Shown: positions 1,415-36,672 of the stretch, piece after piece
Position numbering within the stretch: the first letter of the stretch is position 1
How the letters are laid out: the number at the start of each line of letters is the position of its first letter
Sequence record: MZ779063.1
Source: Staphylococcus phage vB_SauM-UFV_DC4
Strand: one strand, 5' to 3'
DNA: 64,000 bases
Notes under the pieces: model-generated
The model's input: only the letters and a program-made list of their open reading frames with translations
The model's database searches: none
What the model was told of the DNA's origin: nothing
Translations under genes and position numbers: made by a program

Positions 1415-1666
1415 GTGGATAATAATAATGTAAGTAGTAAAATCAATAAAAATCAATTACAAACAGCAATGAATAATATGACTAAAAATATAAATGGTAT
1501 AAGTAGAAAGATAACAGGACAAGATAAAATTGATGAAATTAATAAACTTAAAAGAGAAAATGAAGAATTACATCGTTTTCTCTTTAAGATCTATCAAGAT
1601 GATGATTTTGATAGAAGAGAATTGAAGAAAATTATATTTAAAGATGTAAATAAAAAATTTAAATAA
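1415..1666 (+). CDS. small coiled-coil protein, C-tail family mini-ORF (ends ...DVNKKFK)
   Basis: 83 aa, K/E-rich helical; ends with a basic xxFK tail resembling the large paralog arrays. Confidence 0.45.
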   Translation: MDNNNVSSKINKNQLQTAMNNMTKNINGISRKITGQDKIDEINKLKRENEELHRFLFKIYQDDDFDRRELKKIIFKDVNKKFK

Positions 1667-1668
1667 GG

Positions 1669-1875
1669 GTGATTAATTTGAATTCAGATATCCGAATAGA
1701 TAGAAGTGGCCTTTATATACAATCTAATGAGAAGCAGATGAAAGGACAAATTAAAATTATAGAAGAAAACAAAAAATTAAAAGATTTTATTATTGGTATT
1801 AAAAATAATGGTGGTTATGATGAAAAGGAATTAAATAAAATAGTAAATGAAATTGTTAAGGAGAATTTAAAATAA
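1669..1875 (+). CDS. small coiled-coil protein, C-tail family mini-ORF (ends ...IVKENLK)
   Basis: GTG start; 68 aa; tail NEIVKENLK. Confidence 0.45.
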   Translation: MINLNSDIRIDRSGLYIQSNEKQMKGQIKIIEENKKLKDFIIGIKNNGGYDEKELNKIVNEIVKENLK

Positions 1876-2330
1876 TGTCAAATGAAAAAGTTATTGCTAA
1901 AGAATTAACTTTAGATCAAAAAATTAAAATGTTAGAACCAAAGATAGATGAAGAGACTTATTTAAGACCATTAAGTCAAGTAGATGAATCTTTTTATAAT
2001 GAGGTTATTAAAGATGAATTAATTGAGAAAATTAATAATGAAGACCATAAATTTGAAAATAATTTCGATTATCATATATTTAAAAATGGACCAATACAAT
2101 TACTAGGTTTCATTTATAAATTTGAATTTAATGAAAATGCAGTAAATGTTAAAAAAGAAAAACCTAATGAAGGTAATATCTATTTTGGAAGCTTTATATT
2201 AAATAATAAAAATAAAAAAGATGATTCAATATATTTACTTAGAGTTGATAGCAGCTTAGTTGATTTCAGTATATTAGAAAATAAAAAATATAAAGAATTT
2301 GGACGTAATTTATTTAAATTAATTAAATAG
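1875..2330 (+). CDS. hypothetical protein
   Basis: 151-aa ORF overlapping the previous stop (ATGA-type coupling); no recognisable motif. Confidence 0.45.
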   Translation: MSNEKVIAKELTLDQKIKMLEPKIDEETYLRPLSQVDESFYNEVIKDELIEKINNEDHKFENNFDYHIFKNGPIQLLGFIYKFEFNENAVNVKKEKPNEGNIYFGSFILNNKNKKDDSIYLLRVDSSLVDFSILENKKYKEFGRNLFKLIK

Positions 2331-2341
2331 GAGTGATATAA

Positions 2342-2620
2342 ATGGATAAAGAAATCGAAGATTTAGCAGGAGGAATAAACAATCTAGAAATTGACCTTAA
2401 AGATATGAATCATAGATTATCTAATGATAGATCAATTATTATTTTTGAGATTGAAAAATTAAATAAAGCTGTAAATGATCTTTATGTATATAATGAAAAT
2501 CTTAAAAAGGAAAATAAACTTCTTAAAGAAGCAATAGTGTCTATTTCTAAGCATACAGAATTTAAGAATGATTATATAAATAAACTGTCTAATGAAATTG
2601 TTAAAGAAAATTTTAAATAA
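2342..2620 (+). CDS. small coiled-coil protein, C-tail family mini-ORF (ends ...NEIVKENFK)
   Basis: 92 aa; tail NEIVKENFK; GGAG RBS upstream. Confidence 0.5.
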   Translation: MDKEIEDLAGGINNLEIDLKDMNHRLSNDRSIIIFEIEKLNKAVNDLYVYNENLKKENKLLKEAIVSISKHTEFKNDYINKLSNEIVKENFK

Positions 2621-2640
2621 TAAAGAGATGTGATTTTATT

Positions 2641-2916
2641 TTGAATAATGAAAAAAGTTTAATTAAGCGTATGGAAGAGTTAGAAGAACGTACTAGAATG
2701 AATGAAATTAAATTAAATACTATGAAAGATAATTATCATTATATAAATGACATTATAGGCACATTAATTAATAGAATAGAAAATTCTAATCAAACTAATG
2801 AAAAGAAATTAGATGAAATAAGATTAGAGTTAGTCCGTCTTTCTAACGAATTAAATTCACATTCTGAATTAACTAAAAAGTATCTAAAGAATTTTATCAG
2901 AGATAATCTTAAATAA
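2641..2916 (+). CDS. small coiled-coil protein (ends ...NFIRDNLK)
   Basis: 91 aa helical; tail KKYLKNFIRDNLK. Confidence 0.45.
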   Translation: MNNEKSLIKRMEELEERTRMNEIKLNTMKDNYHYINDIIGTLINRIENSNQTNEKKLDEIRLELVRLSNELNSHSELTKKYLKNFIRDNLK

Positions 2917-2920
2917 AGGA

Positions 2921-3202
2921 ATGAAGTGCATGAAGACTATTAAAAGAATAATTGGTTCAGAAGAATTTATCAATACGGTAAAGAAAACTATAGCTAGAAC
3001 TAAGAAAGCAGAAGAGAAATTTTATGATTTAAATAATAGAGTTGATAAAGCTTTATCTTTAGCTAGTAAAGTTGTTGAAGATAATAAAGAAAAAGAAAGA
3101 CAAATTAAAGAGCTAAAAGAAGCTTTATCTAAAGAAAAAATTAATAACAGAAGCATAAAATCCCGATATAATAGATTATTGTATAAAAATGGAGGGAAAT
3201 AA
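2921..3202 (+). CDS. small coiled-coil basic protein
   Basis: 93-aa K/E-rich ORF. Confidence 0.4.
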   Translation: MKCMKTIKRIIGSEEFINTVKKTIARTKKAEEKFYDLNNRVDKALSLASKVVEDNKEKERQIKELKEALSKEKINNRSIKSRYNRLLYKNGGK

Positions 3203-3207
3203 TAATT

Positions 3208-3435
3208 ATGAACTCAAATATTAATTTTAATGATAATGGATCATCTATGGATGAACTATATTCAAGAATGCAACTTAGAGCCGCTAAACAAGTAGAAAAA
3301 GATATATTGGGAGATAATGAAAAAGATTCCCTAGAAAAAGAAGTAAAAGAACTTAGAGAACTTGTTCTTGAAGTAGCTAAAAAGTATGATGTTAAAGAAA
3401 TAAAAGAATATCTAGTTAGAAAAAATATGAAATAG
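3208..3435 (+). CDS. small coiled-coil protein (ends KEIKEYLVRKNMK)
   Basis: 75 aa; tail KEIKEYLVRKNMK matches the array consensus. Confidence 0.5.
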   Translation: MNSNINFNDNGSSMDELYSRMQLRAAKQVEKDILGDNEKDSLEKEVKELRELVLEVAKKYDVKEIKEYLVRKNMK

Positions 3436-3460
3436 TGTTTAAGAAAAGAGTTGAATAAAA

Positions 3461-3652
3461 TTGGTTGAAAATGATTTAGATATCTTTAAAGCAATTGAAA
3501 AAGCAACTAATAATATCTTAGATAAAAATGAAAAACTAAAAAGTGAGAATTTAGAACTTAAAGAATTGATATTAGATATTTCTAAAGAATATAATATAAA
3601 AGATAAAAGAATAACTGAAATAAAAGTTGATCTAGCAAAAAATAAGAGGTAA
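3461..3652 (+). CDS. small coiled-coil protein
   Basis: TTG start; 63 aa; last gene before the convergent terminator. Confidence 0.35.
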   Translation: MVENDLDIFKAIEKATNNILDKNEKLKSENLELKELILDISKEYNIKDKRITEIKVDLAKNKR

Positions 3653-3675
3653 TGACAAATTAATGTCATTACCTC
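3646..3675. terminator. bidirectional hairpin terminator between convergent genes
   Basis: perfect inverted repeat GAGGTAATGACA...TGTCATTACCTC. Confidence 0.55.
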
Positions 3676-3688
3676 AATTATACTGCTT

Positions 3689-5917
3689 TTAGTCATCATA
3701 TTTATCTTTATATTCATAATAACTATCAAATTGAACTTCTAAACCTGAGAAAGCTGAAATGAATCCCATTCTACCTTCCATATTGATGTTTTCAATATCT
3801 TTAAAATCAACATCTGGTTTACGATAATTGAAATTCTTATTTTTATCTATAAATATTCTAATTCTATTTTCATTTTTAATAATCTTAATATACTTGTTAT
3901 TAATGTCTAATGGAACATGATTAGTTAAAAATAATTGTTTTTCTGATTCATCTTGGAATATTTCTTTAGGTTTTCCAAATACTTTATCAATTTCATAGAA
4001 ACCAGTTTTCATTATACGGTCAGGATCTTTCATAACATCTTCATCATTCAAATCAAAGTAAGGAACATCCCAATTTTCTTGTTGAGAAGCTATCCAAAGC
4101 ATATAACCTGAATTTAGTTGAGTATTATAATCAAATATAATTCCTGCTCCACCAGTTTTATTTTTATTAATTACTTTAAATGTCATAATATAATTTTTAG
4201 GGAATTTGAAATTTTGACTATACACATAGTTCAATGCGTCATCATCAAATTTAGTTGTTCCATCTATGAAACTAATATAACCATAATTACCTAATGATTG
4301 TTTAGATAAAGTTTTATTATAAAATCCGGTATAAGTTTGAGTTTCTACAGGAAATGTGCCATATGATCTTAATGCAACTATCATAGGATTAAAGTATATT
4401 CCTGATCTACTCTCATCATAGAAATAATCAGAATCATCTGGATTTTTAAGTGAATAATTATACTCCAATTCAACATTATACCAATCTTCTTTAGTTACGA
4501 TAAACGTATTATCGAATTCTTCATGACTAATTCCAGCTATTTCAAATTCATCTAAACTAACTTGAATTATTTCATTTGGATCAACGTCATCAACAAAATT
4601 TGTTAATTTGACTTCTATTTCCATTTTCTTAATATTTTTCATATTGTACATCATATGTTTAAGATATGATTTTTGACCTTGAGTATTATAATTTTTATTA
4701 TTTGAAGGGAATATATTTTCTACTTTTTTAACTTTACCTGTATTTGATGTTAATGTGATATCATAAACTAACTTAGCTGTAGGATGATTATTATCTTTAA
4801 AGTTAGTTGAATATCCCATATTAAAAGCAAAGAAATCATAATTTAATAAACGTTTAATATTCATTCTAGGATTTTCATTTTCATCATCTAAAGTTATTTT
4901 AACAAATGATGCAGAATTTTCATCTTCTTTATCAGATTTACTTAAAATATCTCCTTTAACTTCATATAAACCGGTTTCTTGATTAAAACTTACTGAAGAT
5001 AATCTTGTTGATTCAAGATTAGAATGACTTACATCTTCATCATTAGCTTTTCTTAAATCAAATATAGCTGTGGGTGCTTTAAATTGATAGTTCTCTGTAG
5101 CATTAATTACATTAAAACCTTTTCGGTCTGTTATTTTTAATTTAGATGTACCATTTTGTAAAGGTGCAAATAAATATTTCTCTCCTGGTTTAAAGTACAT
5201 TTTACCTTGAAATTTACGTGAAAAACTTTTTTTGTAAAATAGATGTGGTAAAGTTTTTAAACCATCATTATTAAGTGTAAATGGTTCTACTAAATCTTTA
5301 TTATTTGTATCAGGTCTATAGAATTTATGCTCATGAACTTCATGTCTTTCTCTTAGATATCTATCAGAAGTGATATTTTCTAATTTATCTTCAAAATCAG
5401 TTTCAGGTACAAACGGTATAATTCTAGGATCGTTATAACCCGGAGTAACTCTGCCTGATTTTTCTTCAGTACTTTTCATCATATGTTTAAAAATAGGTTT
5501 AGGATTATTCTCAGTGCCTAATATTTCATTTTCTTCATTAATAATCTTATTTAAATCATTAATGACAGTCTCTGGGAAAATTTTTACAGTATCTGTATTA
5601 AATTGATCTACTGTTTGCATATCATTAACAAAAAGTAAAAGATACCAAAGATCAGTAGTTCCATATAGCTCATTAGATAGATATTCAGGTCGATAGTGAT
5701 ATGATTTTGATAAGTCATAATCTATTAAATCTCTTTTAAGTACATTTTCATATTTTTTTAGTAATGGTAAACTAAAGACAGCTTGTTTTTCAAATAAATA
5801 CCATTCTGATATATTATTAAGTAATATTTTATTCGTCTTGGAGTATTCTATTTCATCAGACATTTCAGGTACATCATTTCTACCCATATTGTTATTTCCT
5901 ACGTCACGAATAAGCAA
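3689..5917 (-). CDS. large hypothetical protein (742 aa), possibly virion-associated
   Basis: long uninterrupted ORF; no catalytic motif recognised. Confidence 0.55.
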   Translation of the reverse strand: MLIRDVGNNNMGRNDVPEMSDEIEYSKTNKILLNNISEWYLFEKQAVFSLPLLKKYENVLKRDLIDYDLSKSYHYRPEYLSNELYGTTDLWYLLLFVNDMQTVDQFNTDTVKIFPETVINDLNKIINEENEILGTENNPKPIFKHMMKSTEEKSGRVTPGYNDPRIIPFVPETDFEDKLENITSDRYLRERHEVHEHKFYRPDTNNKDLVEPFTLNNDGLKTLPHLFYKKSFSRKFQGKMYFKPGEKYLFAPLQNGTSKLKITDRKGFNVINATENYQFKAPTAIFDLRKANDEDVSHSNLESTRLSSVSFNQETGLYEVKGDILSKSDKEDENSASFVKITLDDENENPRMNIKRLLNYDFFAFNMGYSTNFKDNNHPTAKLVYDITLTSNTGKVKKVENIFPSNNKNYNTQGQKSYLKHMMYNMKNIKKMEIEVKLTNFVDDVDPNEIIQVSLDEFEIAGISHEEFDNTFIVTKEDWYNVELEYNYSLKNPDDSDYFYDESRSGIYFNPMIVALRSYGTFPVETQTYTGFYNKTLSKQSLGNYGYISFIDGTTKFDDDALNYVYSQNFKFPKNYIMTFKVINKNKTGGAGIIFDYNTQLNSGYMLWIASQQENWDVPYFDLNDEDVMKDPDRIMKTGFYEIDKVFGKPKEIFQDESEKQLFLTNHVPLDINNKYIKIIKNENRIRIFIDKNKNFNYRKPDVDFKDIENINMEGRMGFISAFSGLEVQFDSYYEYKDKYDD

Positions 5918-6014: not shown

Positions 6015-6030
6015 AAATATATATTATTTT
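6015..6030 (+). promoter_or_regulatory. phage promoter-like box AAATATATATTAT
   Basis: one copy of the recurring AAATATATATTATAAAAATG motif, about 65 nt upstream of the MoxR-like gene. Confidence 0.4.
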
Positions 6031-6095
6031 AATGAGATTGAGATGGAATTAATCTTAATACTCAAAAATAAAAATTTTTAATTACAAGGAGAGAT

Positions 6096-7646
6096 TTGGA
6101 TATGGCAAAAGTAAAATACTCACAAACAAAATTATTGGTAAGAGGAGCATTTAGATCAGATGAAATTATCAACGTAGTTGGTGATGGCGGAATTGGTAAA
6201 ACACAAATGATGAGAGATATTGCAGAAGAAGATAATATGAACTTCATTACTATCGCTGCAAATAACCTTAAAGAAGGGGAATTATCTTTACCAATGTTAT
6301 CACAAAAAGATAATGAAGTTATCTATGCTCCAATGGATAAAATTAAGTTAGCTAATAGTCTTTTTGAGAGATATAAAGAGTATCAAAGAGAAGGCGGAAA
6401 ACAATATTCACGTAAAGACCTTTCTTTAAAATCTGTTGATGAATTAAAAGAAATTTATGTGAAATTGACTGGTAAAGATGTTGTTGATTATTATGAGGAT
6501 ACTCATGAAAACTATGTTAATAAAGTATTTAACAAAGCTAGAGTTAAAAATGTTAAATATAGTAAAAATGATTTAATGAAAAAATCATTTGATGAATTAA
6601 ATGAAATCTTTGTAGAATTAACTGGTAAAGAATTAAGAGATAAAATTGGTAAAGGTTTCTATATCAAAGAAATTTTAGAAGCAGTTCCAAGACCTTATAC
6701 TCTATTATTTATTGACGAAATTGGACGTACAGACCAACAAGTACAATCAGAGTTAATGAACTTCTTATTAGAACGTCAAGTAAATGGTTATCATTTACCA
6801 CCTAACGTTAAGATTGCATTAGCACAAAACCCATCTTCAGACATGCCAGGATTTGAAGACTCAGAATACGCAGCAACTTCTATGGATAACGCAGTAAGTT
6901 CTCGTATTACATTTGTACACATGGTTCCTGATATTGAAAGTTGGGTAGACTTTGCTACTAAATATAAAGATGGTTCAGAAAAGCAAAATATTCATCCATC
7001 TATTGTTGAGTTCGTAACTGAAAAAGAAAGTACTGAATATTTATTTAGACCTCATAAAGAAGCTGGTAAAGACTTCAATGATACTAACCCACGTTCTTGG
7101 GAAATGATTTCTAATATGTTATATGTATTAGAAGAAGATGATTTATTTAAATTCTCTAATAGTGAAGAAGAGAAACGTAAGAAGAAAGATACTTTACAAT
7201 TCTTCACTGAAGGTAAAATTAATAGTGATTTAGCAAACTTATTTGTTAAATTCTATATTGAAAAACAAGCTAAATTACCTCGTCCAAGTGATATTTTATT
7301 TGAATATGATAAAGGTAAAATGGTTCCTCGTAAAGAATTAGCTAAACAACACATTGAAGCTATTGAAAGTCAATCAACTATTAGACAATTAACATTGAAA
7401 ACTTCAATGATTAACTATCTTAAAAATAATCCTGATTTAGCTGAAGAACAAGTTATTCAAATTGCTGTAGAAGCTTTATTATTAGGTAAAGTTGAAACTA
7501 ATGCTACACCAATTAGATTAATTTCTAGACTTTCAGAATCTACTGAAGAGTCAGACCAAGAATTATATGAGAAATTCACTGATAATGAATTATACAGTGA
7601 TAAAGCATTTGCATTATACGAACAAATGGTAGGAAGCTTAGGATAA
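6096..7646 (+). CDS. MoxR-type AAA+ ATPase
   Basis: Walker A GDGGIGKT; Walker B / sensor stretch LLFIDEIGRTDQQVQSELMNFLLERQV parallels the MoxR DEINRAxxxxQSALLEAMQERQV; internal tandem roughly 27-aa duplication at aa 103-181. Confidence 0.7.
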   Translation: MDMAKVKYSQTKLLVRGAFRSDEIINVVGDGGIGKTQMMRDIAEEDNMNFITIAANNLKEGELSLPMLSQKDNEVIYAPMDKIKLANSLFERYKEYQREGGKQYSRKDLSLKSVDELKEIYVKLTGKDVVDYYEDTHENYVNKVFNKARVKNVKYSKNDLMKKSFDELNEIFVELTGKELRDKIGKGFYIKEILEAVPRPYTLLFIDEIGRTDQQVQSELMNFLLERQVNGYHLPPNVKIALAQNPSSDMPGFEDSEYAATSMDNAVSSRITFVHMVPDIESWVDFATKYKDGSEKQNIHPSIVEFVTEKESTEYLFRPHKEAGKDFNDTNPRSWEMISNMLYVLEEDDLFKFSNSEEEKRKKKDTLQFFTEGKINSDLANLFVKFYIEKQAKLPRPSDILFEYDKGKMVPRKELAKQHIEAIESQSTIRQLTLKTSMINYLKNNPDLAEEQVIQIAVEALLLGKVETNATPIRLISRLSESTEESDQELYEKFTDNELYSDKAFALYEQMVGSLG

Positions 7647-7657
7647 CAATTATAGAT

Positions 7658-7700
7658 AATGGAGATTATTAGTCTCCATTATCTTCATTTATTTTTTTAT
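7658..7700 (+). terminator. rho-independent terminator
   Basis: hairpin AATGGAGATTATTAGTCTCCATT followed by a T-run. Confidence 0.5.
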
Positions 7701-7710
7701 AATTAGGAGA

Positions 7711-9648
7711 GTGAATTTGATAATGAATGATAATAGAACAATTAAAGTAATTAGAAAAGAAATATTAGACGAAGTACAAGAATCGATTGTAAATGATAGA
7801 CAGTTAGATAAAAAGAAATTAACGAAGCTTGGAGAAGAATTAATTGAAAATAGTATTTTTGTGTTGTATACTTCTGATGTTGATATTTATGGAGTAATGT
7901 TAATGACTGTAGAAAAGATCATTGACATTGAAATTCCAGAACCAACTTTCTCAGTATTTGATGAAGAAAAAGGTTATAAGATTGGTATTAATCCAGTGTT
8001 ATTAGCCACTATGGTTGATAAAGATGAAGAAATAGTTTCTATGTTCCTACATGAAGTTATCCATGTAGCTCATGGACATTTAATTGAATTTAGAATGTTA
8101 AGAAATAAAGAAGATTCTCAATTAAAAATGTTAAGTCACTTAGGAATGGATTTATCAGTATTTGAAATTGAAGAAGACTTCCAATTAGGTAAACGTGAAG
8201 CTAATACAAGTAAAAAAGTTTTACCTGAAATTGCACCTAATGTAGATAAGATTGAAAAGTATATTCAAGATAAATTTAATAAAACAAATTTTAAATTAAA
8301 TCATAATGATGCTTCTCACTATTATATTAAACAATTAGTAGATATCTACAAAGAAAATAATGAAGAAGATATGTTTGATTCTATGGGTGAATCTATGCAA
8401 AATATGATTCAAGAATCTTCAGAAAAACAGAATGAACGTGATGAAGATTCATTGAATGAAGAAAATGAAATGTTGAAAGACATGTTAGAAGATTTAAAAG
8501 ACATTGAAGATAAAAATGATTTATCTAGTAAATTAGAAGATAATAAACTAGAAGAAAACAAAGTTGATGATTTTGAAAATAAAGCTCAAGATTATATGAA
8601 TAAATTAGATGAAATGAATCAAAATGATGAAGAGAATAGTAATGATACTCAAAATCAGAAAAATATAGAAGAGAAAATGAATGATTTACTAGATTCAATG
8701 AGAAATAATACTTCAGATAATAAATTTAATAGTAAAGATAATAATGATTTATCTGATAAAATACAAGAAATGAAATCAGATATATTAAATCAAATGATTC
8801 AGAATAATATGCAACAGGGTTCTCAAGGTATGCAAGGTGAAGATGGTGGAATGCAAGATGGACAAAATGTTTCTGATATGGGAAGTAACATGACTATGTC
8901 ATCTTCTTTAGATGGAAATTCTAAATATGCAGATAAATTTGATTCCAATCCTCTTGAAGGAGATGCTACAGAGGAAAGAATGAAAGACCAATTGTATGAT
9001 TTATTAGAAAGTGCTAGTAGTAATAGTCGTGGTGATACACCTAATCATATTAAAGAACAAATTGAAATTCTAAAACGTAAACCTAAGATTAAATGGCAAG
9101 ATTATCTTAAAGCTAAAGTAGGTAAAAAACGTTCTTCTAGTACGAAAACTATTTTAAGAAGAAATAGAAGACAACCTTATCGTAGTGATGTACGTGGGAC
9201 TTTACCTGGTAGAAAATTAGGTAAAGTATTTGCGGCTATTGACACTTCAGGTTCAATGGGTAGAAATGAAATTGAAGAAATTATTGCTGAATTGTATTAT
9301 ATTAGTAGTGATATGAAAATTGATTTAGTTTTATTATTCTTTTCAACTGGTGTTGAAGAAGTAGTTGAAGTAAACAGACCAAATCAATTTAATGATTATG
9401 TAATGGGTCGTGGCGGAACTTACTTCAGTTCTGTATTTGATTTCTTAAATGAAACTGATAACAAACGTAAATATTCAGTATCAAAAGATGATACTCTATT
9501 ATTCTTCTCAGATGGTTTTGGAGAACCTGAGGTGGAATACGGTGTATTAACTGATGTTGTTTGGGTTATTACTGAAGATGAAAATAATCTTTCAGTTAGA
9601 GATCCAAAAGGTAAAGTACTAAAATTAGAAATAGATAATAAAAGATAA
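7711..9648 (+). CDS. HExxH metallopeptidase-like / VWA (MIDAS) domain protein, partner of the MoxR ATPase
   Basis: HEVIH at aa 114-118; C-terminal DTSGSM MIDAS motif with VWA-like context; about 220-aa acidic N/D/E/Q-rich disordered linker between them. Confidence 0.65.
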   Translation: MNLIMNDNRTIKVIRKEILDEVQESIVNDRQLDKKKLTKLGEELIENSIFVLYTSDVDIYGVMLMTVEKIIDIEIPEPTFSVFDEEKGYKIGINPVLLATMVDKDEEIVSMFLHEVIHVAHGHLIEFRMLRNKEDSQLKMLSHLGMDLSVFEIEEDFQLGKREANTSKKVLPEIAPNVDKIEKYIQDKFNKTNFKLNHNDASHYYIKQLVDIYKENNEEDMFDSMGESMQNMIQESSEKQNERDEDSLNEENEMLKDMLEDLKDIEDKNDLSSKLEDNKLEENKVDDFENKAQDYMNKLDEMNQNDEENSNDTQNQKNIEEKMNDLLDSMRNNTSDNKFNSKDNNDLSDKIQEMKSDILNQMIQNNMQQGSQGMQGEDGGMQDGQNVSDMGSNMTMSSSLDGNSKYADKFDSNPLEGDATEERMKDQLYDLLESASSNSRGDTPNHIKEQIEILKRKPKIKWQDYLKAKVGKKRSSSTKTILRRNRRQPYRSDVRGTLPGRKLGKVFAAIDTSGSMGRNEIEEIIAELYYISSDMKIDLVLLFFSTGVEEVVEVNRPNQFNDYVMGRGGTYFSSVFDFLNETDNKRKYSVSKDDTLLFFSDGFGEPEVEYGVLTDVVWVITEDENNLSVRDPKGKVLKLEIDNKR

Positions 9649-9725: not shown

Positions 9726-11789
9726 ATGTTAAAAAAGACTACAGAAAATGAATTAGAAAAGTTATTCAATGTCACTATTTATAATGAAGAATTTTCTAAT
9801 TTAAAACCTATGTATAATAGAAAAGATACTGAAACTAGAACTAAATTAAATGACAATCAAAATTCTAGAGTGTATGAGAATTTAATAAATTTCATTAATT
9901 ATTCTAAAGCAGGAATGACACACATGTTTTTAACTCGTTCTAATAAATATAGAGATAAATATATTGATTTTCTAAGAAATAGACTTGGTAAGGAAGATTT
10001 ATTAGATGAGGTTGAATTTGAATATACAGATAGATATTTCAGATCTTTCATATATAATATAGATATAATTAGAAGAAGTGAATATCAAACACATCAATCT
10101 ATAGAAAATGACTCTAAATTAGAAGATTCATTCTTATTAAGAAATGGAAATACAAATATAGATAGCTTTAAAACGGATAATGGTTTATCTATAGAATTTT
10201 TAGATAAAGATGTAAAGAAAGATTTTTTAGATAAGAACAAACAAATTAGTTTAGAATCTTTGCTAGATATCGATACGATGGTGTCTAATTCATTAAGAAA
10301 GAAATGGTTAAAATCAATTGAAAAAGAAGAATTACCTGATATGAATATTATATTTAAAGAAGTTCCAGAAGTAGTAATTATACTAGCAAACAGTATATAT
10401 GAAAGATCAAATTTCAAATTATCATATGTAGATAGAAGTGTTATTAATATACACGCAGACGTTTCAGATGTTTTGGAATCAATACTAACTTTAATTTCTA
10501 ATTTTAATTATAAATTAATATTAGATTTAATAGATGAAGATTACTTAAGTAAAAATTTAAATCATTTCAAAGCTTCTGAATTTTCTTTATCTGACAATAA
10601 TGACATTGATAATATATTTAGTATAATCGGAATTATTAAAAAACAAACGGACGTTATTAATAAATTTATAGAAAAAAGCAAATCAGATAATCTAGAAGAC
10701 AATATTAATTTAATAATTAAAGAAAATGAAATAGATGATGACTTTGGAGAAATATTAAAAGTTTATATTGATAGTGTATTATCTAAATTTAGAGAATATA
10801 TTGAAGATGATACCAATATATTAAAAGATTCATCTAAGGTTTTAATAGGTGAAAATCTATTTGATTTCTTTATGAAATTAGATGATCTCGAAATTTTAAT
10901 GATTAGAAATATATACAGAGTTTTAGATAGTAATGTATATAATCCTGTAATCAGAGATGTTAAAGAATCACAAGAAAAAGTTATGAATGGAATAGTAGAT
11001 TATTTTAAAAATAATACTAAAAAATTATCTTTAGATTTATCTAATATCGATATAAGTAGATTGAAAGATAGTTCTTTCACATTATTAAACGATTTCATAA
11101 CAAATGGAGAAGTAAGTAATCTTCGTATGAAACCTAATGAAGCTAATATGGAGTATTTCTATAAATTAAGTGTGGATAAAGAATTAAACCGTGACATATT
11201 AAATAGTAATATACAATATATGAAACAGGAATTATTAAAAGGTTTTAATGATAATTCTAAAATGACTTCAAATGCTATTATTGAATTTGATAATTTTAAT
11301 ATTAATTTTGCTGTAATAGAAAATAATTCATATAATAATGAAATAGAAATAATGATGCAAGGAGTTACTTTTAAGAAAAAATTAACTGATGAGGATATTG
11401 CTACTATCTTTTTATATTCACATAAAGAAGTTAGTATATATCAAGACAAAAAATTAGTTATCATGGATAGAAATTATTTCTCTAGAAGAGGTATAAATAA
11501 ATTTATAAATAATATGAATAATGTCTTCACTGATTTAGATGGAGAAAGTTTATCTAAATATATGTCTTTAATTTATAATTTATTATCTTTATCAGATAAT
11601 TCTTTTGAGGAAGATAAAGCAATTTATAATACTCTATATTACAATAAATTTGAATATATTAATAAAGAAAATGAGTTAAAAGTTGATAGTTATATTAATA
11701 TGATTAATAATAAAGATGTAACAGATGATTTTAAAAAGAAATTTAAAAAGGTAAGATCTAAGTATTTAGTTTCTAGAATATTTATTTAA
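9726..11789 (+). CDS. hypothetical protein (687 aa)
   Basis: long ORF with AGGAG RBS; no motif recognised. Confidence 0.5.
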   Translation: MLKKTTENELEKLFNVTIYNEEFSNLKPMYNRKDTETRTKLNDNQNSRVYENLINFINYSKAGMTHMFLTRSNKYRDKYIDFLRNRLGKEDLLDEVEFEYTDRYFRSFIYNIDIIRRSEYQTHQSIENDSKLEDSFLLRNGNTNIDSFKTDNGLSIEFLDKDVKKDFLDKNKQISLESLLDIDTMVSNSLRKKWLKSIEKEELPDMNIIFKEVPEVVIILANSIYERSNFKLSYVDRSVINIHADVSDVLESILTLISNFNYKLILDLIDEDYLSKNLNHFKASEFSLSDNNDIDNIFSIIGIIKKQTDVINKFIEKSKSDNLEDNINLIIKENEIDDDFGEILKVYIDSVLSKFREYIEDDTNILKDSSKVLIGENLFDFFMKLDDLEILMIRNIYRVLDSNVYNPVIRDVKESQEKVMNGIVDYFKNNTKKLSLDLSNIDISRLKDSSFTLLNDFITNGEVSNLRMKPNEANMEYFYKLSVDKELNRDILNSNIQYMKQELLKGFNDNSKMTSNAIIEFDNFNINFAVIENNSYNNEIEIMMQGVTFKKKLTDEDIATIFLYSHKEVSIYQDKKLVIMDRNYFSRRGINKFINNMNNVFTDLDGESLSKYMSLIYNLLSLSDNSFEEDKAIYNTLYYNKFEYINKENELKVDSYINMINNKDVTDDFKKKFKKVRSKYLVSRIFI

Positions 11790-11836
11790 ATATATATTAT
11801 ATAATTGAGTTGGTAATTGAACTTATCAACTCAATT
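11788..11836 (+). promoter_or_regulatory. promoter-like box AAATATATATTATATAA followed by hairpin AATTGAGTTG...CAACTCAATT
   Basis: motif plus immediately following perfect inverted repeat; may double as terminator of the upstream gene. Confidence 0.45.
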
Positions 11837-14472: not shown

Positions 14473-15084
14473 ATGGGTGATATTAAATTTAATGAAGAAT
14501 ATATGTCAGTTAAAATTTATAAGTTAATTAATTTGTTTGAGTTTCAACAAACAACTCGTAAAAGAGCATTTTCAAACCATAATTCTGAAAGTGATGAAAA
14601 TGAGCTTAATATGTATATAGGTAAAAATGACAATAAAAATATGATTGACATTTTTACTAATTCTTTCTTTTTATACAATCAATTTAAAGATGTTTGCAGT
14701 TTAGTATTTAACAATGGTAATACTATTATTGCAGAAATTGAGATATTAAATAAAAATAAATTGTCAATTGAAATTAATTCAGAAATCTTAATTGTTGATA
14801 GTGAAATTAAAAATTTCATTATCAAAAATGATTTTAGTGTAGGAGATGGCTTCTTAGGCTTAATTATTGAAAATGATAAAGAAAAAATTCTTAAATTATT
14901 TTTAGAATCATTGTCTGATAGTTATTTTTGGATAAACAAGAAAAGAAGTTTAAATATATCTGATTCTAAAAAAATTAAATTTAAAAAATATTTAGAAGAT
15001 TTATATAAAATGAAAGATTTTTATAGTAAAGAAATCACTGAAAAAGAATATAAAGAAAATATAGTAAAAGATAATTTCAAATAA
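14473..15084 (+). CDS. C-tail family protein (tail KEYKENIVKDNFK)
   Basis: tandem paralog of 15176-15817. Confidence 0.55.
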   Translation: MGDIKFNEEYMSVKIYKLINLFEFQQTTRKRAFSNHNSESDENELNMYIGKNDNKNMIDIFTNSFFLYNQFKDVCSLVFNNGNTIIAEIEILNKNKLSIEINSEILIVDSEIKNFIIKNDFSVGDGFLGLIIENDKEKILKLFLESLSDSYFWINKKRSLNISDSKKIKFKKYLEDLYKMKDFYSKEITEKEYKENIVKDNFK

Positions 15085-15872: not shown

Positions 15873-16169
15873 TTATTTCATGCTGTCTAATTCAGCTAAT
15901 TTTAATTTAGCTTTAGTTGCATATTTTTGACGAATTATGTCACGCCATTTTTTACGAGCACGAGCAGCTTTTTGATATTTAAAATAGATTGGATCTTGAG
16001 CTTCTTTAGCTGCAACTAATGCTAATTGGTTTAATCTACGTTTACGTTTAGTACGTTCATCTAAACGCATGATATTTTGTTCACGTAAAAGAGCTTCATC
16101 AGTTGCTTGCATAATTTGCTCTTCTAGTGGAGTAATGTTATTTTTCATAATGGAAGATCTTCCTTTCAA
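15873..16169 (-). CDS. small basic (K/R-rich) protein, lone minus-strand gene
   Basis: 98 aa; GGAAG RBS; basic stretch KRKRRLNQ...ARARKKWRDIIRQKYATKAK. Confidence 0.5.
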   Translation of the reverse strand: MKGRSSIMKNNITPLEEQIMQATDEALLREQNIMRLDERTKRKRRLNQLALVAAKEAQDPIYFKYQKAARARKKWRDIIRQKYATKAKLKLAELDSMK

Positions 16170-22312: not shown

Positions 22313-23014
22313 ATGGAAAATATTAAATTGTATAAAAATCTAGAAAATGGTGATAAATTTACTTTATCTAAAGATGAAATTAATAATGGTAGATTTCTTT
22401 ATAAAGTCATGAAACAAATAAAAAGTAGTTTTTACCCATATTATAATTATGAAGACCAACCCATTACAACCAATGGAAACTCTTATTTAATTAATAAACA
22501 ACTGAATTTTCATTTTTATACACATTCTGATATTATTATAAATTTTAAAAATTTAATTGGAATAGATGAAGATATAATAATTAAGAGTAATGAAAATAAA
22601 GAAAGAAATATTTCATCTTCAATTGTTTGTTTCTCTGATTCCAATACAGATAATGATGGAATTTATGAAAATATATTTCAAATTGTTTTAAATACAAAAA
22701 AGACTAAGAAAATAATTCGTATGCTAGATAAATATAAAAGTGATAAATATAAAATATCTTCCTGTACAATGGATAAAAATGAAGTACATTTTAAAGTTAG
22801 TTTCAAACAAGATTATTTGTCTGATAAGAATAATGACGTTTATGATTCTCTAGATGAATTAATATATTATATATTAAAAGATCTTAGAATTAAGATCGAC
22901 AATTCGTATATGTATTTTATGGATTATCTAAGATGGAATTTGGAATTTATTGCTGAAGAAATTACTGATGAGGAAGAAATTAAAAATTACTTAATTAAAG
23001 AAAAATTTAAATAA
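22313..23014 (+). CDS. C-tail family protein (tail ITDEEEIKNYLIKEKFK)
   Basis: conserved tail. Confidence 0.55.
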   Translation: MENIKLYKNLENGDKFTLSKDEINNGRFLYKVMKQIKSSFYPYYNYEDQPITTNGNSYLINKQLNFHFYTHSDIIINFKNLIGIDEDIIIKSNENKERNISSSIVCFSDSNTDNDGIYENIFQIVLNTKKTKKIIRMLDKYKSDKYKISSCTMDKNEVHFKVSFKQDYLSDKNNDVYDSLDELIYYILKDLRIKIDNSYMYFMDYLRWNLEFIAEEITDEEEIKNYLIKEKFK

Positions 23015-29062: not shown

Positions 29063-29839
29063 ATGGAGAAAATTAACAAATACTACATTAGTAAATCGAA
29101 AGATGAATTTATAGAATTAACTTTCAATGAAAATGAAACACTCTATTTTGACTTTAAGTGGAAAGTTTTAAGTGAGCTATTCACTACAATGCAAATAAAT
29201 TATAATAAGAGATTTCTTATATCTCATGAAGAACATGATGACAATGGTTTAGTTGGTCTTAGAATAAATTTCAATGCTTTTCCCACAGTTAAATACAAAT
29301 ATAAAGGTAAGAAAAATAAAATGGAACTTCTTATATACGCTATAATACGCTTTAGTCTAAATGAAGAAGACGATAATTATATTAAGTTTAAAGCTGTTCC
29401 TTTATATAATAATAGTGAAATAGGGAAAAGATTATTTAGTAAAAGATCTGGTATATTTGATGATAATGGTGAACTAGATTTACCGCATGACTTTAATGAA
29501 GAAGTTATGATTCGCTTTTTAAAATATTTTAAAAGCCATATACAAAAAGGAAAAAGACCTTTAGAACTCAAGGACGATTTACACAAGATGTTTACTACTA
29601 CAAATAAATTAATTTTTGAATTACTAGATCAGATACAAGATCATTCAGATATTGAATTTCTTATTGCACCCGATTGGGATTTTAGTGGTAAAGAAATGGA
29701 AAAAGAAAAAGGTTTTAGTTTTGAAAAAGAATATGATAAGTATATCAGTTTAAATGATTTCGATGTTGATGCATATTTTAGAGAAATAACTGATGAGAAA
29801 GAGATTAAAAAATTTAAAGTTAAGAAAGGATTTTCCTAA
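29063..29839 (+). CDS. C-tail family protein (tail ITDEKEIKKFKVKKGFS); RDHxDIEF subfamily
   Basis: tail plus the shared internal motif LLDQIQDHSDIEFLIAPD. Confidence 0.55.
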   Translation: MEKINKYYISKSKDEFIELTFNENETLYFDFKWKVLSELFTTMQINYNKRFLISHEEHDDNGLVGLRINFNAFPTVKYKYKGKKNKMELLIYAIIRFSLNEEDDNYIKFKAVPLYNNSEIGKRLFSKRSGIFDDNGELDLPHDFNEEVMIRFLKYFKSHIQKGKRPLELKDDLHKMFTTTNKLIFELLDQIQDHSDIEFLIAPDWDFSGKEMEKEKGFSFEKEYDKYISLNDFDVDAYFREITDEKEIKKFKVKKGFS

Positions 29840-29840
29840 T

Positions 29841-30659
29841 ATGAAAAATAATACAAAATATTTTATAGATAAAAAAAGAGATGAATTAATTGAAATTGAT
29901 AAAGAATATCTTAATCGATATGAGTATATTGCACACGTATTAACTGTCATTGATATGAATAAGCTTTTATATATTGAAGATCATGCTAGATCCTTTATAA
30001 ATGGTATTAATATTGAAGAAAATGATGTGGGAAATGGATTGACTTTTAATAATATAGAAATTCATAATAATATCCATTTCAAAAATATAAATAGTAAAAA
30101 TAATGCGTATAAAAATTTTAATACCGATTTTTATATAAACTTCTTTATTGATAGAATGGATAAAGTTAAAACTCAGAATTTTAAGTTAAAATTTAATTTT
30201 TATAATTCAATATATAAAGAATATTTTAATAAAATTACCAATAATTTATTAAATGAAGATAATTTAGTCAATGAAGGAGTAAATAAAGAAATAAGATCTC
30301 TTATGAATTTTGAATTATTTAAAAAAGAGTTATATAATACTAAATACAATAATAGTGAATATTTAAATCTTTTTGAAAATTCATCATATATGAAGGACAA
30401 TGTTATTGGATTTATAAATAAATTTGAAGGATTATTTTCTAGTGTAATATACCAAAATAACCTTAGTGTATTAATGACTCTTTATGAAATAAAATACATG
30501 TATGAAGATGACATAGATTTTTATATTAATTTTTATAATGAAAATTATGGTTTAGTTAATATATTAGAATTAATCGAAAGTGATGAAAATGATTTATTTA
30601 AAGAAATTAAAACAGAAAAAGAAATGAAAGCGTTTAAAGTTAGAAAAGGATTCAAATAA
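29841..30659 (+). CDS. C-tail family protein (tail KTEKEMKAFKVRKGFK)
   Basis: ATG at 29841 sits right after the upstream stop, so it is preferred over the overlapping track start at 29793. Confidence 0.5.
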   Translation: MKNNTKYFIDKKRDELIEIDKEYLNRYEYIAHVLTVIDMNKLLYIEDHARSFINGINIEENDVGNGLTFNNIEIHNNIHFKNINSKNNAYKNFNTDFYINFFIDRMDKVKTQNFKLKFNFYNSIYKEYFNKITNNLLNEDNLVNEGVNKEIRSLMNFELFKKELYNTKYNNSEYLNLFENSSYMKDNVIGFINKFEGLFSSVIYQNNLSVLMTLYEIKYMYEDDIDFYINFYNENYGLVNILELIESDENDLFKEIKTEKEMKAFKVRKGFK

Positions 30660-33043: not shown

Positions 33044-33880
33044 ATGAGTGATGTATATTATGAATATAAATTGAGAAATAAAATATTTAAGTTTAATGAT
33101 GAAATTGAAGATTTAAGCGATACCGGTATTAAGAACTTTATAACATATGAAAATAATATTTTAAGCAATTTATTGACAAATATATTAATTGATCATACTG
33201 TCTATGGTTTTATACCGAATATATCCTATGAAGAAAATAAAAATGATGGTGTTGATAAAGAATATGTAAAAAAGGTAAATTTAAGTATTTTAAAACATTT
33301 ACCCTTAGTATCATACAGTGTAGGTAATTCAAATATATTAAATGATTTTTCTTTAAATGTCAATTCTGTTGTTGATATTTATAAAAAAGGAAATTTCGAA
33401 GATGAAGAAGGCAATAAAATGATTATACCTAAAGAAAATTTTAAATTGGAGACAAATATAAATATTGATAATTTAGGTGGAAAAATCGATCATGAATTAT
33501 TTAATAAAATATGTGGAGATATTTTTGATCAAGACGAGAATTTTTTATTTTATAAAATGTATGATCATATATTAGAGGAAAATTCTATGTCACTATATGA
33601 GAATATAGGAAATATAAATAATAAATTGGTTTATGAAATTATACTCCGTTTAAATAATAATATTTTATCATTATTTGAAAAAATCAGAAGTCATTTAGAC
33701 GTGAGATTTTATTTAAGAGATAAAGACTTTTATCTTTTCAGTAATGGAGAAATAGACAAAGATTCATTAAGTGACGAATATATTGAAATATCTGAATTTT
33801 TAGGAAAATCATCTTTATTTAAAAAGATTACAGATGAGAAGATTATTAAAAATTATGAAATAAAAGAAAACTTCAAATAA
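33044..33880 (+). CDS. C-tail family protein (tail ITDEKIIKNYEIKENFK); same subfamily
   Basis: tail plus LFEKIRSHLDVRFYLRDKDF. Confidence 0.55.
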   Translation: MSDVYYEYKLRNKIFKFNDEIEDLSDTGIKNFITYENNILSNLLTNILIDHTVYGFIPNISYEENKNDGVDKEYVKKVNLSILKHLPLVSYSVGNSNILNDFSLNVNSVVDIYKKGNFEDEEGNKMIIPKENFKLETNINIDNLGGKIDHELFNKICGDIFDQDENFLFYKMYDHILEENSMSLYENIGNINNKLVYEIILRLNNNILSLFEKIRSHLDVRFYLRDKDFYLFSNGEIDKDSLSDEYIEISEFLGKSSLFKKITDEKIIKNYEIKENFK

Positions 33881-33936: not shown

Positions 33937-36672
33937 ATGAAGATTAAAAGATTAAAGTTAAAGAATTTTATCGGTATTTATGCTGGTATGGGATTAAAAG
34001 AAGTTGAAATTGATTTTAGTAAAAGTAAAAATAATATGATTATGCTTCTTGGAGATAACGCTTCAGGTAAGACGACAGTTATGTCTAATCTTAATCCATA
34101 TAGAGAAACTAATGATCAACGTAAAACTATAGTATTAGAAGATGAAAAAGGTATAAAAGAGATTGATTATATTAAGGGTAATGATGTTTATGAAATTAAA
34201 CATCATTATGGTAAAAACAGTTCTCAAAATAAATCATTCATTAAGAAAAATGGTGAAGAACTTAATGAAAATGGTGGTATTAAATTATTCAATGAAATAG
34301 TAGATAAAGAATTAGGTGTATCTAAAGAATACTTTACTGTAGGTCGTTTAGGTGATAACGTATCAAACTTCATTGACTATACTACAGGTGATCGTAAATC
34401 ATATATCAATAAATTTGTACCTAATATTGATAGATACTTAGAAGCTTATAAAGTAGCTAATGAGAAATTAAAAATTATTACTAAAGATTTAAAATCACTT
34501 AGATTTGATTTAGACAAATATAAAGAATTTGATGAAATCAAAAAAGAAAAAGAGAATTTAGAAACTTTAATTGATCAATTACAAAATGAACTTGATGAAG
34601 CTAATAAAGATAAAACAACTCATGAAACTAAAATGAATTCTATCATGGAAGATAAGTACAAAGAGATTCATCCAACTGAATATAAAAATCAATTAATTAA
34701 TGAAATTAATGAACTTAATCAAGAATTAGAAAAAGAAAGAAAGTTAAAAGAAGATAATGAGAATTTAAATAAATATACTATTGAATCCGCTAATGAGAAA
34801 AAAGATAAAATAGATACTATATTAAATAATACTAATAATGAGTTGACTTCTGTTGAGAAAGATAAAGAGAATAATCAAGATAAATTAGATGATTTAATCA
34901 GTAGAAAATCTAAAATAGAATCTCGTATGAATGCTATCAAATTTAATGAAGATTATGATGCTTCTGATGAAATTGATTCAATTCTTGAAGGATATAAAGA
35001 AGATTTAGAAGGTATTAAAGATGATGTAGATATTTCTAGAGGGTCTTTTGTAAGTGAATTCGGTTTACAAATTAAAGATAATATTAAAGAGGATTCATTA
35101 AGATTATATGTAAATGATTTAATTTCTAAGGTAGATAATTTTAAAGAATTTATTAATGATAATGAATTTAAATATGGTTCTATTCGTGGAGATTTTGAAA
35201 GTGAAATTAAAGATAATAATGAAAAAATTTCTATGAACCAGAATGAATTTAATGAAATTAATACTAAGCTTAATCAAATTAAAGGTAAATCAGACTTATT
35301 AAAAATATTAGATCAAAAAGATCATGAACACTATAATGAATGTGTATTTGTTCCTTTAGTAGCTGACTTTAAAGATAATGAATTTGATTCAATTTCTGAA
35401 TTAGAAAATAAAGGTAATCAACTTTATAAAGATAATCAAGAATTAGAAAAAGATAATAGATTATTATCTAATCATATTGATTTATTACGTAAATTTAATG
35501 ACATACTTAATAGCAGAAATGGTTTAATTGAATATATTGGTTTTGAAATGATTGATATTGATAGTATTGAAGAAATATTTACTAATGGTAATACATTCTC
35601 TAGTGAACTAAATAGACTTAATTCATTAATTGAAAAGACAAATGAAATTCGTACTAATGAAACTAATAGAGATAAATTGACTATTGAATTAGAGAGAAAA
35701 GAAAATGCTCTTAAAGAAGATTATTCTAATAAGAAAATATTAGATCAATATAAAGAAGATAAAGAAGATTTAGTTAAACAAATTGAAGAAATTAAAAATA
35801 AAAATAATGAAATTTCTGAGAATCTTAATTATCTTAATGGTCGTAAAGAAAAAGCAATTACTAACTTAAATATTATTAATGAATTTATTAATCTAACAGA
35901 GAGATCTGAAGAAATTAAATTAAAAATGAAAGATAAAAATGATATAGTTGATGACATTGATAAGGATCTTTCAAAATTAAGTAATTTATATGAACTTAAT
36001 CAAAAAGCAGACAATAAGATTCAATCTATTAAAGATAATTTAACTATGAAGAAAAATGATTTAGAATCTACTAAAGAAAAATACTTTGCAGTTAATTCTA
36101 TTATTACTAAGATTGATGAAATTGAATCAGTGTTATGGAAATATAATATGGTGGTAGACTCATTAAATCCTAAGAAAGACTCTATACCATTAATATTCAT
36201 TACTAATTATCTTAAAGATATTGCAGTAAGTACTAATGAATTACTTTCAGTTGCTTATAATAATTCATTTAAAATTGACTTTGACTTAACAGATAAAGAT
36301 TTCTTTATTAATGTGTATAAAGGTAATGGAACTGAACTTAAGGATATTAAAGAAGCTTCTCAAGGAGAAACAGCTTTAACTAATATTAGTTTATCATTAT
36401 CATTATTAAACAAAGTATCTCAAGATTATAATATTCTATACTTAGATGAAATGGATTCAACATTAGATTCTAATAATAGAAGAAGATTTGTTGATGTGAT
36501 TGACAGACAAATTGAATTAATGGGTCTAGAGCAAGTATTCTTAATTAGTCATAATGATGAATTTTATAGTGCTAATATTGACTTAATTTTACTTAAAGGA
36601 TATGAAAGTAAAATTGACATTAATAATGAAGAAATGATGCAAGGTAAAAATGTATTATTTAAAGTAAACTAA
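33937..36672 (+). CDS. SbcC/Rad50-like SMC-type ATPase
   Basis: N-terminal IKRLKLKNFIGI...LLGDNASGKTT (Walker A); long central coiled coil; C-terminal signature/Walker B region ...ASQGETALTNISLSLSL... LYLDEMDSTLD. Confidence 0.7.
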   Translation: MKIKRLKLKNFIGIYAGMGLKEVEIDFSKSKNNMIMLLGDNASGKTTVMSNLNPYRETNDQRKTIVLEDEKGIKEIDYIKGNDVYEIKHHYGKNSSQNKSFIKKNGEELNENGGIKLFNEIVDKELGVSKEYFTVGRLGDNVSNFIDYTTGDRKSYINKFVPNIDRYLEAYKVANEKLKIITKDLKSLRFDLDKYKEFDEIKKEKENLETLIDQLQNELDEANKDKTTHETKMNSIMEDKYKEIHPTEYKNQLINEINELNQELEKERKLKEDNENLNKYTIESANEKKDKIDTILNNTNNELTSVEKDKENNQDKLDDLISRKSKIESRMNAIKFNEDYDASDEIDSILEGYKEDLEGIKDDVDISRGSFVSEFGLQIKDNIKEDSLRLYVNDLISKVDNFKEFINDNEFKYGSIRGDFESEIKDNNEKISMNQNEFNEINTKLNQIKGKSDLLKILDQKDHEHYNECVFVPLVADFKDNEFDSISELENKGNQLYKDNQELEKDNRLLSNHIDLLRKFNDILNSRNGLIEYIGFEMIDIDSIEEIFTNGNTFSSELNRLNSLIEKTNEIRTNETNRDKLTIELERKENALKEDYSNKKILDQYKEDKEDLVKQIEEIKNKNNEISENLNYLNGRKEKAITNLNIINEFINLTERSEEIKLKMKDKNDIVDDIDKDLSKLSNLYELNQKADNKIQSIKDNLTMKKNDLESTKEKYFAVNSIITKIDEIESVLWKYNMVVDSLNPKKDSIPLIFITNYLKDIAVSTNELLSVAYNNSFKIDFDLTDKDFFINVYKGNGTELKDIKEASQGETALTNISLSLSLLNKVSQDYNILYLDEMDSTLDSNNRRRFVDVIDRQIELMGLEQVFLISHNDEFYSANIDLILLKGYESKIDINNEEMMQGKNVLFKVN

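Follow-up and report, generated by a model that had tools for sequence, protein, structure and literature searches.

A block of small helical protein genes in Staphylococcus phage vB_SauM-UFV_DC4, several ending in the C-terminal tail of a clade-restricted protein family

The internal proteins of phage T4 are fast-evolving small proteins with a shared N-terminal capsid targeting sequence, which is cleaved by the prohead protease; their genes are late and the products are packaged. In the ankyrin-PRANC (F-box-like) families of poxviruses, all members dock onto one host hub through a C-terminal helical motif. Bacillus phage G carries about 35 copies of a zinc ribbon, a lineage-specific expansion in a jumbo phage (PMC7824862), and phage AR9/PBS1 has an array of tailed paralogues, g030-g036. 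Here, we report the analysis of a 64,000-nucleotide (nt) stretch of Staphylococcus phage vB_SauM-UFV_DC4 (DC4; sequence record MZ779063.1), hereafter the window, and of a block of eight genes within it (g1 to g8, positions 1415-3652), several of whose products end in a tail that recurs at C termini across the genome. The DC4/S6 group consists of AR9/PBS1-like phages, with deoxyuridine-containing DNA (dU-DNA) and split multisubunit RNA polymerases.

The block resembles the T4 internal proteins in that a short terminal peptide is common to otherwise unrelated, fast-evolving small phage proteins; here, in contrast, the motif is C-terminal, helical, and found on genes of the non-structural strand, and the small proteins of the block (the minis) are not in a shallow list of virion proteins. 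Like the poxvirus proteins, those described here form large within-virus paralogue families in which a helical motif at the C terminus is conserved and the N-terminal parts vary, but there is no sequence relation between the two, the bacterial host has no SCF ligase, and the hub is here putative. Phage G likewise has one small module in tens of copies within one jumbo phage genome; its module is a recognisable zinc ribbon, whereas that of DC4 is a capped helix of about 16 amino acids (aa), fixed at the C terminus and without a Pfam match in the 25 proteins scanned. The AR9/PBS1 array comes from the same phage group and is also an uncharacterised tandem array with a strictly C-terminal tail in early-promoter-led runs, and one of its members, g033, is a mini that retains little beyond its termini. 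It differs in its tail sequence, in its size (6 genes, against about 45 here) and in its mini, which is not a coiled coil.

By gene order, g1 to g8 correspond to UFVDC4_00002 to UFVDC4_00009, with a helicase gene as UFVDC4_00001. The open reading frames (ORFs) of the block are as follows.

1415-1666, + strand: g1, 83 aa, basic, helical; UFVDC4_00002 by gene order; marginal tail (last 16 aa at 1616-1663)
1669-1875, + strand: g2, 65 aa from the annotated TTG at 1678 or 68 aa from the GTG at 1669; tail at 1819-1872, with a 3-aa insertion
1875-2330, + strand: g3, 151 aa, acidic, without tail; first codon shares 1 nt with the g2 stop
2342-2620, + strand: g4, 92 aa, a long helix followed by the tail helix (2570-2617); 100% identical to UFVDC4_00005
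2641-2916, + strand: g5, 91 aa, helical mini; marginal tail at 2866-2913
2921-3202, + strand: g6, 90 aa from the annotated ATG at 2930 (93 aa from the ORF start), isoelectric point 10, helical; weak tail-like end
3208-3435, + strand: g7, 75 aa; canonical full tail YDVKEIKEYLVRKNMK at 3385-3432
3461-3652, + strand: g8, 63 aa; paralogue of g4 and g7; degenerate tail

These eight consecutive ORFs fill the block, with spacers of -1 to 25 nt and Shine-Dalgarno-like sequences upstream of most starts; K, E, N, D, R, and Q make up 47 to 58% of the residues of their products. The GC content of the phage DNA is about 22%. The first 8 kb of the window was 98.4% identical to the Staphylococcus jumbo phages S6 and PALS_2 and 82 to 96% identical to seven further relatives (megablast). 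All eight genes are annotated as coding sequences (CDSs) in S6, Madawaska, and SA1, and six of them in Machias and AH12, where g2 and g8 are missing. Ratios of nonsynonymous to synonymous substitution (dN/dS; Nei-Gojobori, in comparison with SA1 and Machias) showed purifying selection on seven of the eight genes (0.07 to 0.48), the exception being g2: 0.25 to 0.32 for g1, 0.07 to 0.10 for g3 (among the most constrained of the block), 0.31 to 0.48 for g4, 0.10 to 0.20 for g5, about 0.07 for g6, 0.16 to 0.31 for g7, and 0.37 for g8. The first-pass annotation had described eight back-to-back genes, a description borne out by the ORFs themselves, by the CDSs of the relatives and by the selection on most of them. 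It had also called them mini-genes of 60 to 95 aa with strong ribosome-binding sites (RBSs) and spacers of 0 to 20 nt; the size holds for seven genes, g3 not being a mini-gene because of its 151 aa, and the spacing holds for most of the junctions, as do the Shine-Dalgarno-like sequences for most of the starts.

For a genome-wide count of the tail, the window was joined to the S6 backbone and 282 genes were called. A first position-specific matrix, built from 18 array proteins, found 42 C termini at P < 0.002 (0.56 expected), 42/42 of them on the + strand, and longer matrices raised the count to about 48 of the 282 genes. The consensus is roughly ..EIT[DE]KE[IY]K.[YI][LK]VK.[NTG]F[KRI]-COOH, with F at position -2 in 43/48 tails, K or R at position -5 in 37/48, and K (35 tails), I (7 tails), or R (3 tails) as the last residue; the median tail score was reached by no internal window anywhere in the genome. 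The non-structural strand holds all the tail carriers, and runs headed by an early-promoter-like motif (core TATATTAT, taken from Korn et al.) contain 34 of the 48 genes. Identical tail residues used the same codon at a rate of 0.73, genome codon usage predicting 0.70, and therefore the constraint on the tail acts on protein and not on DNA. A DNA-level cause (promoter, RBS, or gene conversion) was ruled out by this codon identity together with RBS placement, the spacers of 13 to 17 nt putting the RBS of the next gene outside the tail.

Outside the tail, the proteins have diverged to about 20% identity, and the tail has not. A Pfam domain was found in none of 25 proteins scanned (the eight of the block and 17 tail carriers outside it). 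The tail profile, run against 1.84 billion representative proteins, gave eight real matches, all at the extreme C terminus and all from this clade, and no description of the family was found in the domain databases or the literature searched. As judged from sequence, the tail family is the largest lineage-specific superfamily of this clade, undescribed and clade-restricted. AlphaFold2 made the tail a separate terminal alpha-helix both in g4 (residues 77-91) and in array protein 25719 (residues 174-186). The model of the latter had a low mean predicted local distance difference test (pLDDT) score of 52, its confident parts being an N-terminal beta-hairpin (70 to 81) and a C-terminal strand plus helix 174-186 (71 to 92); a Foldseek search with this low-confidence model against BFVD returned an orthologue as sole match.

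Tail-like ends were also seen on two more small proteins outside the block, one of 95 aa (36709-36996, +), whose gene comes after an SMC/SbcC-like ATPase gene (33937-36672), and one of 64 aa (S6 22435-22629, +). Internal tail-like segments occur in two array proteins, the products of 14473-15084 (residues 111-122, EIKNFIIKNDFS) and 33044-33880 (residues 123-134, GNKMIIPKENFK) and may be relics of fused tandem copies. For 29793-30659, taking the longest ORF gives an overlap of 47 nt with the preceding gene; the family alignment points instead to a start near 29838-29841 (MKNNTKYF...).

The proteins of the block were scored with a C-terminus-anchored, gapped two-block position-specific scoring matrix (PSSM) derived from 36 non-mini tails; for the null, the 30 C-terminal residues of the protein in question were shuffled 20,000 times. 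The P values were ≤5e-5 for g7 and g2 and 3e-4 for g4, followed by 4e-3 for g5, 4.6e-3 for g1, and 0.017 for g6; g3 and g8 were not significant in this anchored test. Ungapped anchored scores ranked the minis alike (g4, P = 5e-5; g6, P about 1e-3), and by an ungapped 8-mer score g7 and g4 stood above all 240 non-family C termini and g2 above all but two further tail-like ends. The 16-aa tail is complete in g7 (PSSM score of 20 to 25, inside the range of the array proteins), where the upstream block [TD][DE]KE[IY]K is in register with the end block (YDVKEIKEYLVRKNMK). The best scores of g2, g1, and g4 require an insertion of 3 to 4 residues, with the upstream block clear in g2 only (DEKEL), and g5 and g6 have no clear upstream block. 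Position -2 is F in g4 and g1, L in g2 and g5, M in g7, and G in g6; position -5 is K or R in g2, g4, g5, g6, and g7, and N in g1. Orthologues of g1 finish in ..KDVVKKFI or ..KDINSKFI, which resembles the "FI" variant of several array proteins, and the SA1 orthologue of g2 finishes in EIVKDNFK. Three tails are thus robust and two marginal, and the case rests on C-terminal anchoring because anchored and unanchored searches had different outcomes. All five of the tail-like endings quoted in the first-pass annotation were found in the sequence. Against composition-matched controls, those of g7, g2, and g4 held up, those of g1 and g5 were marginal, and g6, which it had not listed, was weak. Its proposal that the genes encode minimal members of the tail family, the tag plus a short helix, accordingly fits g7, g2, and g4, is marginal for g1 and g5, and fails for g3 and for g8, whose tail has degenerated; the g4 model, a long helix, a loop, and a 15-residue terminal helix, agrees with the "tag plus helix" description.

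Pairwise Smith-Waterman scores, set against 1,000 composition-preserving shuffles, linked g2 with g4 (z = 7.4), g4 with g8 (z = 7.0), g7 with g8 (z = 6.7), and g1 with g2 (z = 5.1); the remaining pairs had z ≤ 2.4, and g5 and g6 showed no detectable relation to the five linked proteins. Profile comparison with hhalign agreed (g2-g4 probability, 93.9%). These five proteins (g1, g2, g4, g7, and g8) align end to end over their last ~45 aa, a module with the pattern of roughly EN..LKE.I..ISK, loop, and tail. Ratios of nonsynonymous to synonymous differences (pN/pS) in g1, g4, and g8 were 0.15 to 0.39 over the last 45 aa and 0.43 to 1.18 in the N-terminal parts, and the invariant columns gave the same contrast. 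The genes g1, g2, g4, g7, and g8 are tandem paralogues that encode helical proteins of 63 to 92 aa with fast-evolving N-terminal parts; g5 and g6 are two further conserved helical minis, and g3 is an unrelated 151-aa protein. Neither the paralogy of the five nor the different nature of g3 had been noticed in the first pass.

The AlphaFold2 models are of monomers, and among the minis g4 was the one modelled (mean pLDDT of 91.5; helix 2-70, loop 71-76, helix 77-91). Heptad periodicity was strong in g4 only, borderline in g1, g5, g6, and g8, and not significant in g2 and g7; g3 had no heptad signal and is not a coiled coil. The earlier description of all eight as all-helical coiled coils therefore suits the g4 model and heptads and does not suit g3, the others being borderline or not significant.

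Searches of all eight proteins against Pfam, PHROGs, and NCBIfam gave no significant match, nor did g3 against PDB sequences, and Rfam had no match in the window. Weak matches to YabA, bZIP, and centrosomal proteins were set aside as generic coiled-coil noise. In the case of YabA (PF06156/PRK13169), g1, g4, and g8 weakly match the leucine-zipper-like N-terminal coiled coil, but at 14.5 to 16.3 bits in Pfam (cut-off, 30) and 19 in NCBIfam (cut-off, 142), and the C-terminal zinc-binding domain is absent. Even with all matches at E ≤ 1 included, none of the eight proteins had a WXG100/ESAT-6-like Pfam family. Among 5.8 billion proteins, g4 had only 7 clusters, all within the Staphylococcus jumbo phage clade, and the matches of g7 and g3 in phages (tblastn) were confined to the same clade. 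The central part of g4 is mosaic: it is near to AH12 (pN, 0.045) in spite of flanks that share only ~82% identity with that phage, and far from Madawaska (pN, 0.19), whose flanking DNA is 96% identical; this sequence pattern suggests allele exchange between lineages.

Two neighbouring genes have counterparts in AR9.

6096-7646: MoxR-like AAA+ ATPase, homologue of AR9 g028 (E = 8e-22)
7711-9648: zincin-like peptidase plus VWA, homologue of AR9 g029 (E = 8e-31)

In this phage and in AR9, the pair heads an early-promoter-led run and an array of paralogues with a family-specific C-terminal tail follows directly; BpSp has the same arrangement, with the array three genes further downstream. The AR9 array (g030-g036; L013 24579-30840), which includes the 56-aa g033, has the tail ..F..S.KRVK.YEA..IL..L, and the BpSp array (gp088-091; L015 11264-16073) carries the same Bacillus-type tail. 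Homology of the Staphylococcus-phage tail to this AR9/BpSp tail was rejected (hhalign probability, 0.3%), and the arrays have no blastp match to each other; given that the tails lack profile similarity, the comparison is therefore one of analogy and neighbourhood only. No synteny of the mini-genes was found in AR9 or LPJP1.

Because g7, g2, and g4 end in the tail helix of 42 to 48 of the 282 genes, we read the minis as miniaturised members of the tail superfamily, acting as non-structural accessory proteins that present their terminal helix to a putative shared partner, a reading in which we place about half of our confidence. The minis would have arisen by tandem duplication and truncation and would work by protein-protein binding. 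A helical stalk, probably dimeric (the model being that of a monomer), with its fast-evolving N-terminal part, would present the conserved terminal helix, and this helix would dock onto the same putative surface or partner as it does in the larger tail proteins. The occurrence of the tail together with the hairpin, on unrelated large proteins, and on helical minis argues for a portable module, and a shared partner that reads it is plausible. The first pass had suggested that the minis act as competitors, decoys, or regulators of whatever reads the tag; since at least half of the larger tail proteins also have an N-terminal hairpin motif, the tail may be partly structural. A stronger version, in which the tail is a proteome-wide address tag, with one host or phage receptor reading the free C termini of some 45 non-structural, mostly early-type proteins and with g7, g2, g4, and their relatives as dimeric competitors or adaptors that tune access to it, we consider unlikely.

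A number of observations weigh against the partner reading. An unanchored profile hidden Markov model (HMM) with composition correction passed g7 and the SA1 orthologue of g2 only, so that the tail HMM proposed in the first-pass annotation recovered these two and left g1, g2, g4, g5, and g6 unseparated from shuffles, and the tails of g1, g5, and g6 were marginal even when anchored. The dN/dS of g2 was 0.87, which is nearly neutral and marks a fast-evolving gene, and g2 and g8 are dispensable, since Machias and AH12 do without them. An early promoter for the operon was rejected: the + strand upstream has no copy of the extended consensus TAAATATATATTAT, the one at window position -94 being on the - strand. 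In the 25719 model, the array-protein tail was confident only together with the N-terminal beta-hairpin, and an aromatic pair (YY) in the first 16 residues marked 22/42 non-mini tail proteins but 26/234 others (odds ratio, 8.8; P = 9e-9). From the model, the tail could be an intramolecular packing element that has no reader. The YY motif was absent from all eight proteins of the block, the N terminus of g2 being hairpin-like by eye only.

The main rival to the partner reading builds on the last of these points and makes the tail purely structural, a C-terminal capping helix of one rapidly diverging fold that packs onto the N-terminal hairpin or stalk of its own protein, with the minis as truncated or deleted derivatives that inherited it and have no reader and no regulatory link to the arrays. 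The paired confidence of hairpin and strand/helix in the 25719 model and the YY enrichment are what it would predict, the 45-aa module, a helix-loop-helix in the g4 model, could close on itself, and AR9 g033 resembles a deletion derivative that retained both termini. Yet the conserved charges and the exact stop one residue past F in 43/48 tails exceed the needs of a packing helix, the tail sits on at least three unrelated architectures, YY is lacking in 20/42 non-mini carriers as well as in all minis, and conservation of the tail persists where the remainder of the protein is at ~20% identity. We regard this explanation as possible though doubtful. Reduction of the likeness in the minis to a compositional accident in a K/E/N-rich genome of 22% GC, or to a DNA-level signal at gene ends, is very unlikely: the unanchored HMM and the marginal scores of g1, g5, and g6 are compatible with it, but g7, g2, and g4 beat 20,000 shuffles (P ≤ 5e-5 to 3e-4) and outrank non-family C termini by 8-mer, the SA1 orthologue of g2 (EIVKDNFK) passes the HMM, tail codon identity equals the genome expectation, and the 13- to 17-nt spacers keep the RBS outside the tail. 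For g7, g2, and g4, the accident is largely refuted.

Two further explanations give the tail a reader of another kind. It might be an address or degradation tag for an ATP-dependent machine (host ClpXP/ClpCP, or the phage MoxR-like ATPase with the zincin-VWA protein, 6096-9648), which the minis would modulate or compete for. Its strictly C-terminal, basic and hydrophobic nature would suit such a tag, as would the position of the ATPase/zincin-VWA pair before a tailed array in this phage and AR9, and three genes further off in BpSp. The basis is gene neighbourhood alone, though, and the Staphylococcus-phage and AR9 tails lack profile similarity, most tail genes, the mini block included, are not adjacent to the ATPase, and a virion-assembly chaperone role has been proposed for the MoxR-vWA pairs of other jumbo phages (Iyer et al., PMC7824862); we think the idea quite unlikely. 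The tail might instead be a virion-packaging signal like the T4 capsid targeting sequence, with the minis injected together with the DNA. A short terminal motif on many otherwise unrelated small proteins, with fast-evolving N-terminal parts of the sort expected in injected anti-defence proteins, is consistent with this. Against it, all tail genes are on the non-structural strand (34/48 in early-type-promoter-led runs), the motif is C-terminal, no protease site was identified, and UFVDC4_00002 to UFVDC4_00009 were not among the 15 proteins of the DC4 virion proteome, a shallow one obtained by mass spectrometry. We hold packaging to be highly improbable.

The block does not stand alone. Upstream of it lies the head of the run, and at its downstream end a hairpin.

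168-1394, + strand: RecD/Dda-like helicase, head of the run; annotated start at 186; Pfam AAA_30 (1.9e-16) and UvrD_C_2 (8.8e-15)
3646-3675, no strand assigned: hairpin between the convergent g8 and baseplate wedge gene (3689-5917, - strand); annotated as a terminator in Machias

The gap from helicase to g1 is 20 nt, and no promoter-like gap of its own precedes the mini block; in this dU-DNA Staphylococcus jumbo phage, the helicase heads a gene run of which positions 1415-3652 are the distal part. In the hairpin, a perfect stem of 12 bp carries a loop of 6 nt; its fold energy is -20.9 kcal/mol (z = -6.45), a T-run is clear on the side of the - strand, and the stem is kept in five relatives. 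The perfect hairpin that the first pass had placed at the close of the block is thus upheld by stem, fold energy, and conservation, and from its sequence it is likely a bidirectional terminator. Among the relatives, the loop occurs in two orientations (AAATTA or TTAATT) on an identical stem; in AH12, the last codons of the deleted g8 remain just upstream of the hairpin.

As regards timing, the AR9 homologue of the helicase, g016, is in an operon annotated as early, which speaks for the early host-takeover operon suggested in the first pass; the missing early consensus on the + strand speaks against it. In place of that consensus, a conserved 11-mer, TTCTATGATCC, is found at position -51, just beyond the window edge and 219 nt before the helicase ORF begins (168). 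It has 11 occurrences genome-wide (about 0.1 expected), and the copy upstream of the helicase is kept in all five relatives (L002 about 445-460). The other copies are, on the S6 backbone, at 165749, 196663, 232055, 233042, 233674, 234782, and 239093 (+) and at 115335, 132642, and 246314 (-); four copies lie 29 to 57 nt upstream of start codons, and some are within inverted repeats. The 11-mer may, on this distribution, represent a second class of promoter or serve as a binding site. The extended early-promoter-like consensus TTAAATATATATTAT(A)AAAATG occurs on the + strand at 6015-6035, 11788-11810, 21288, 21716, 24374, 28986, and 48738, and several copies are directly followed by an inverted repeat, whose hairpin would form at the 5' end of the transcript. 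A lone - strand gene within the + strand array (15873-16169; UFVDC4_00019 by gene order) encodes a very basic protein of ~91 aa that is one of the 15 DC4 virion proteins; this 91-aa virion protein was considered as one of the minis and excluded, its gene being on the - strand at 15873-16169.

Small conserved genes of the block may also bear on the dU-DNA of these phages. Known uracil-DNA glycosylase inhibitors include Ugi, SAUGI, and p56. No inhibitor of a known type was reported in Staphylococcus dU phages, and two candidates, from MarsHill and S6, were negative (PMC10303552); g3, g5, and g6, being small, conserved, and unassigned, are reasonable candidates for such an inhibitor. About one-sixth of the genes in a transducing, therapy-relevant Staphylococcus aureus jumbo phage share one 16-residue terminal helix, and the minis (63 to 92 aa) are its smallest carriers and the easiest handles for finding what it binds. 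Without a partner, the tail would still mark out a large family specific to this lineage, and the operon would count as ordinary accessory cargo. Were the address tag true, this would be a phage C-terminal targeting system with dedicated small regulators. A partner common to these proteins, should there be one, would reveal the way in which AR9-like phages keep so many accessory proteins organised in Gram-positive hosts.

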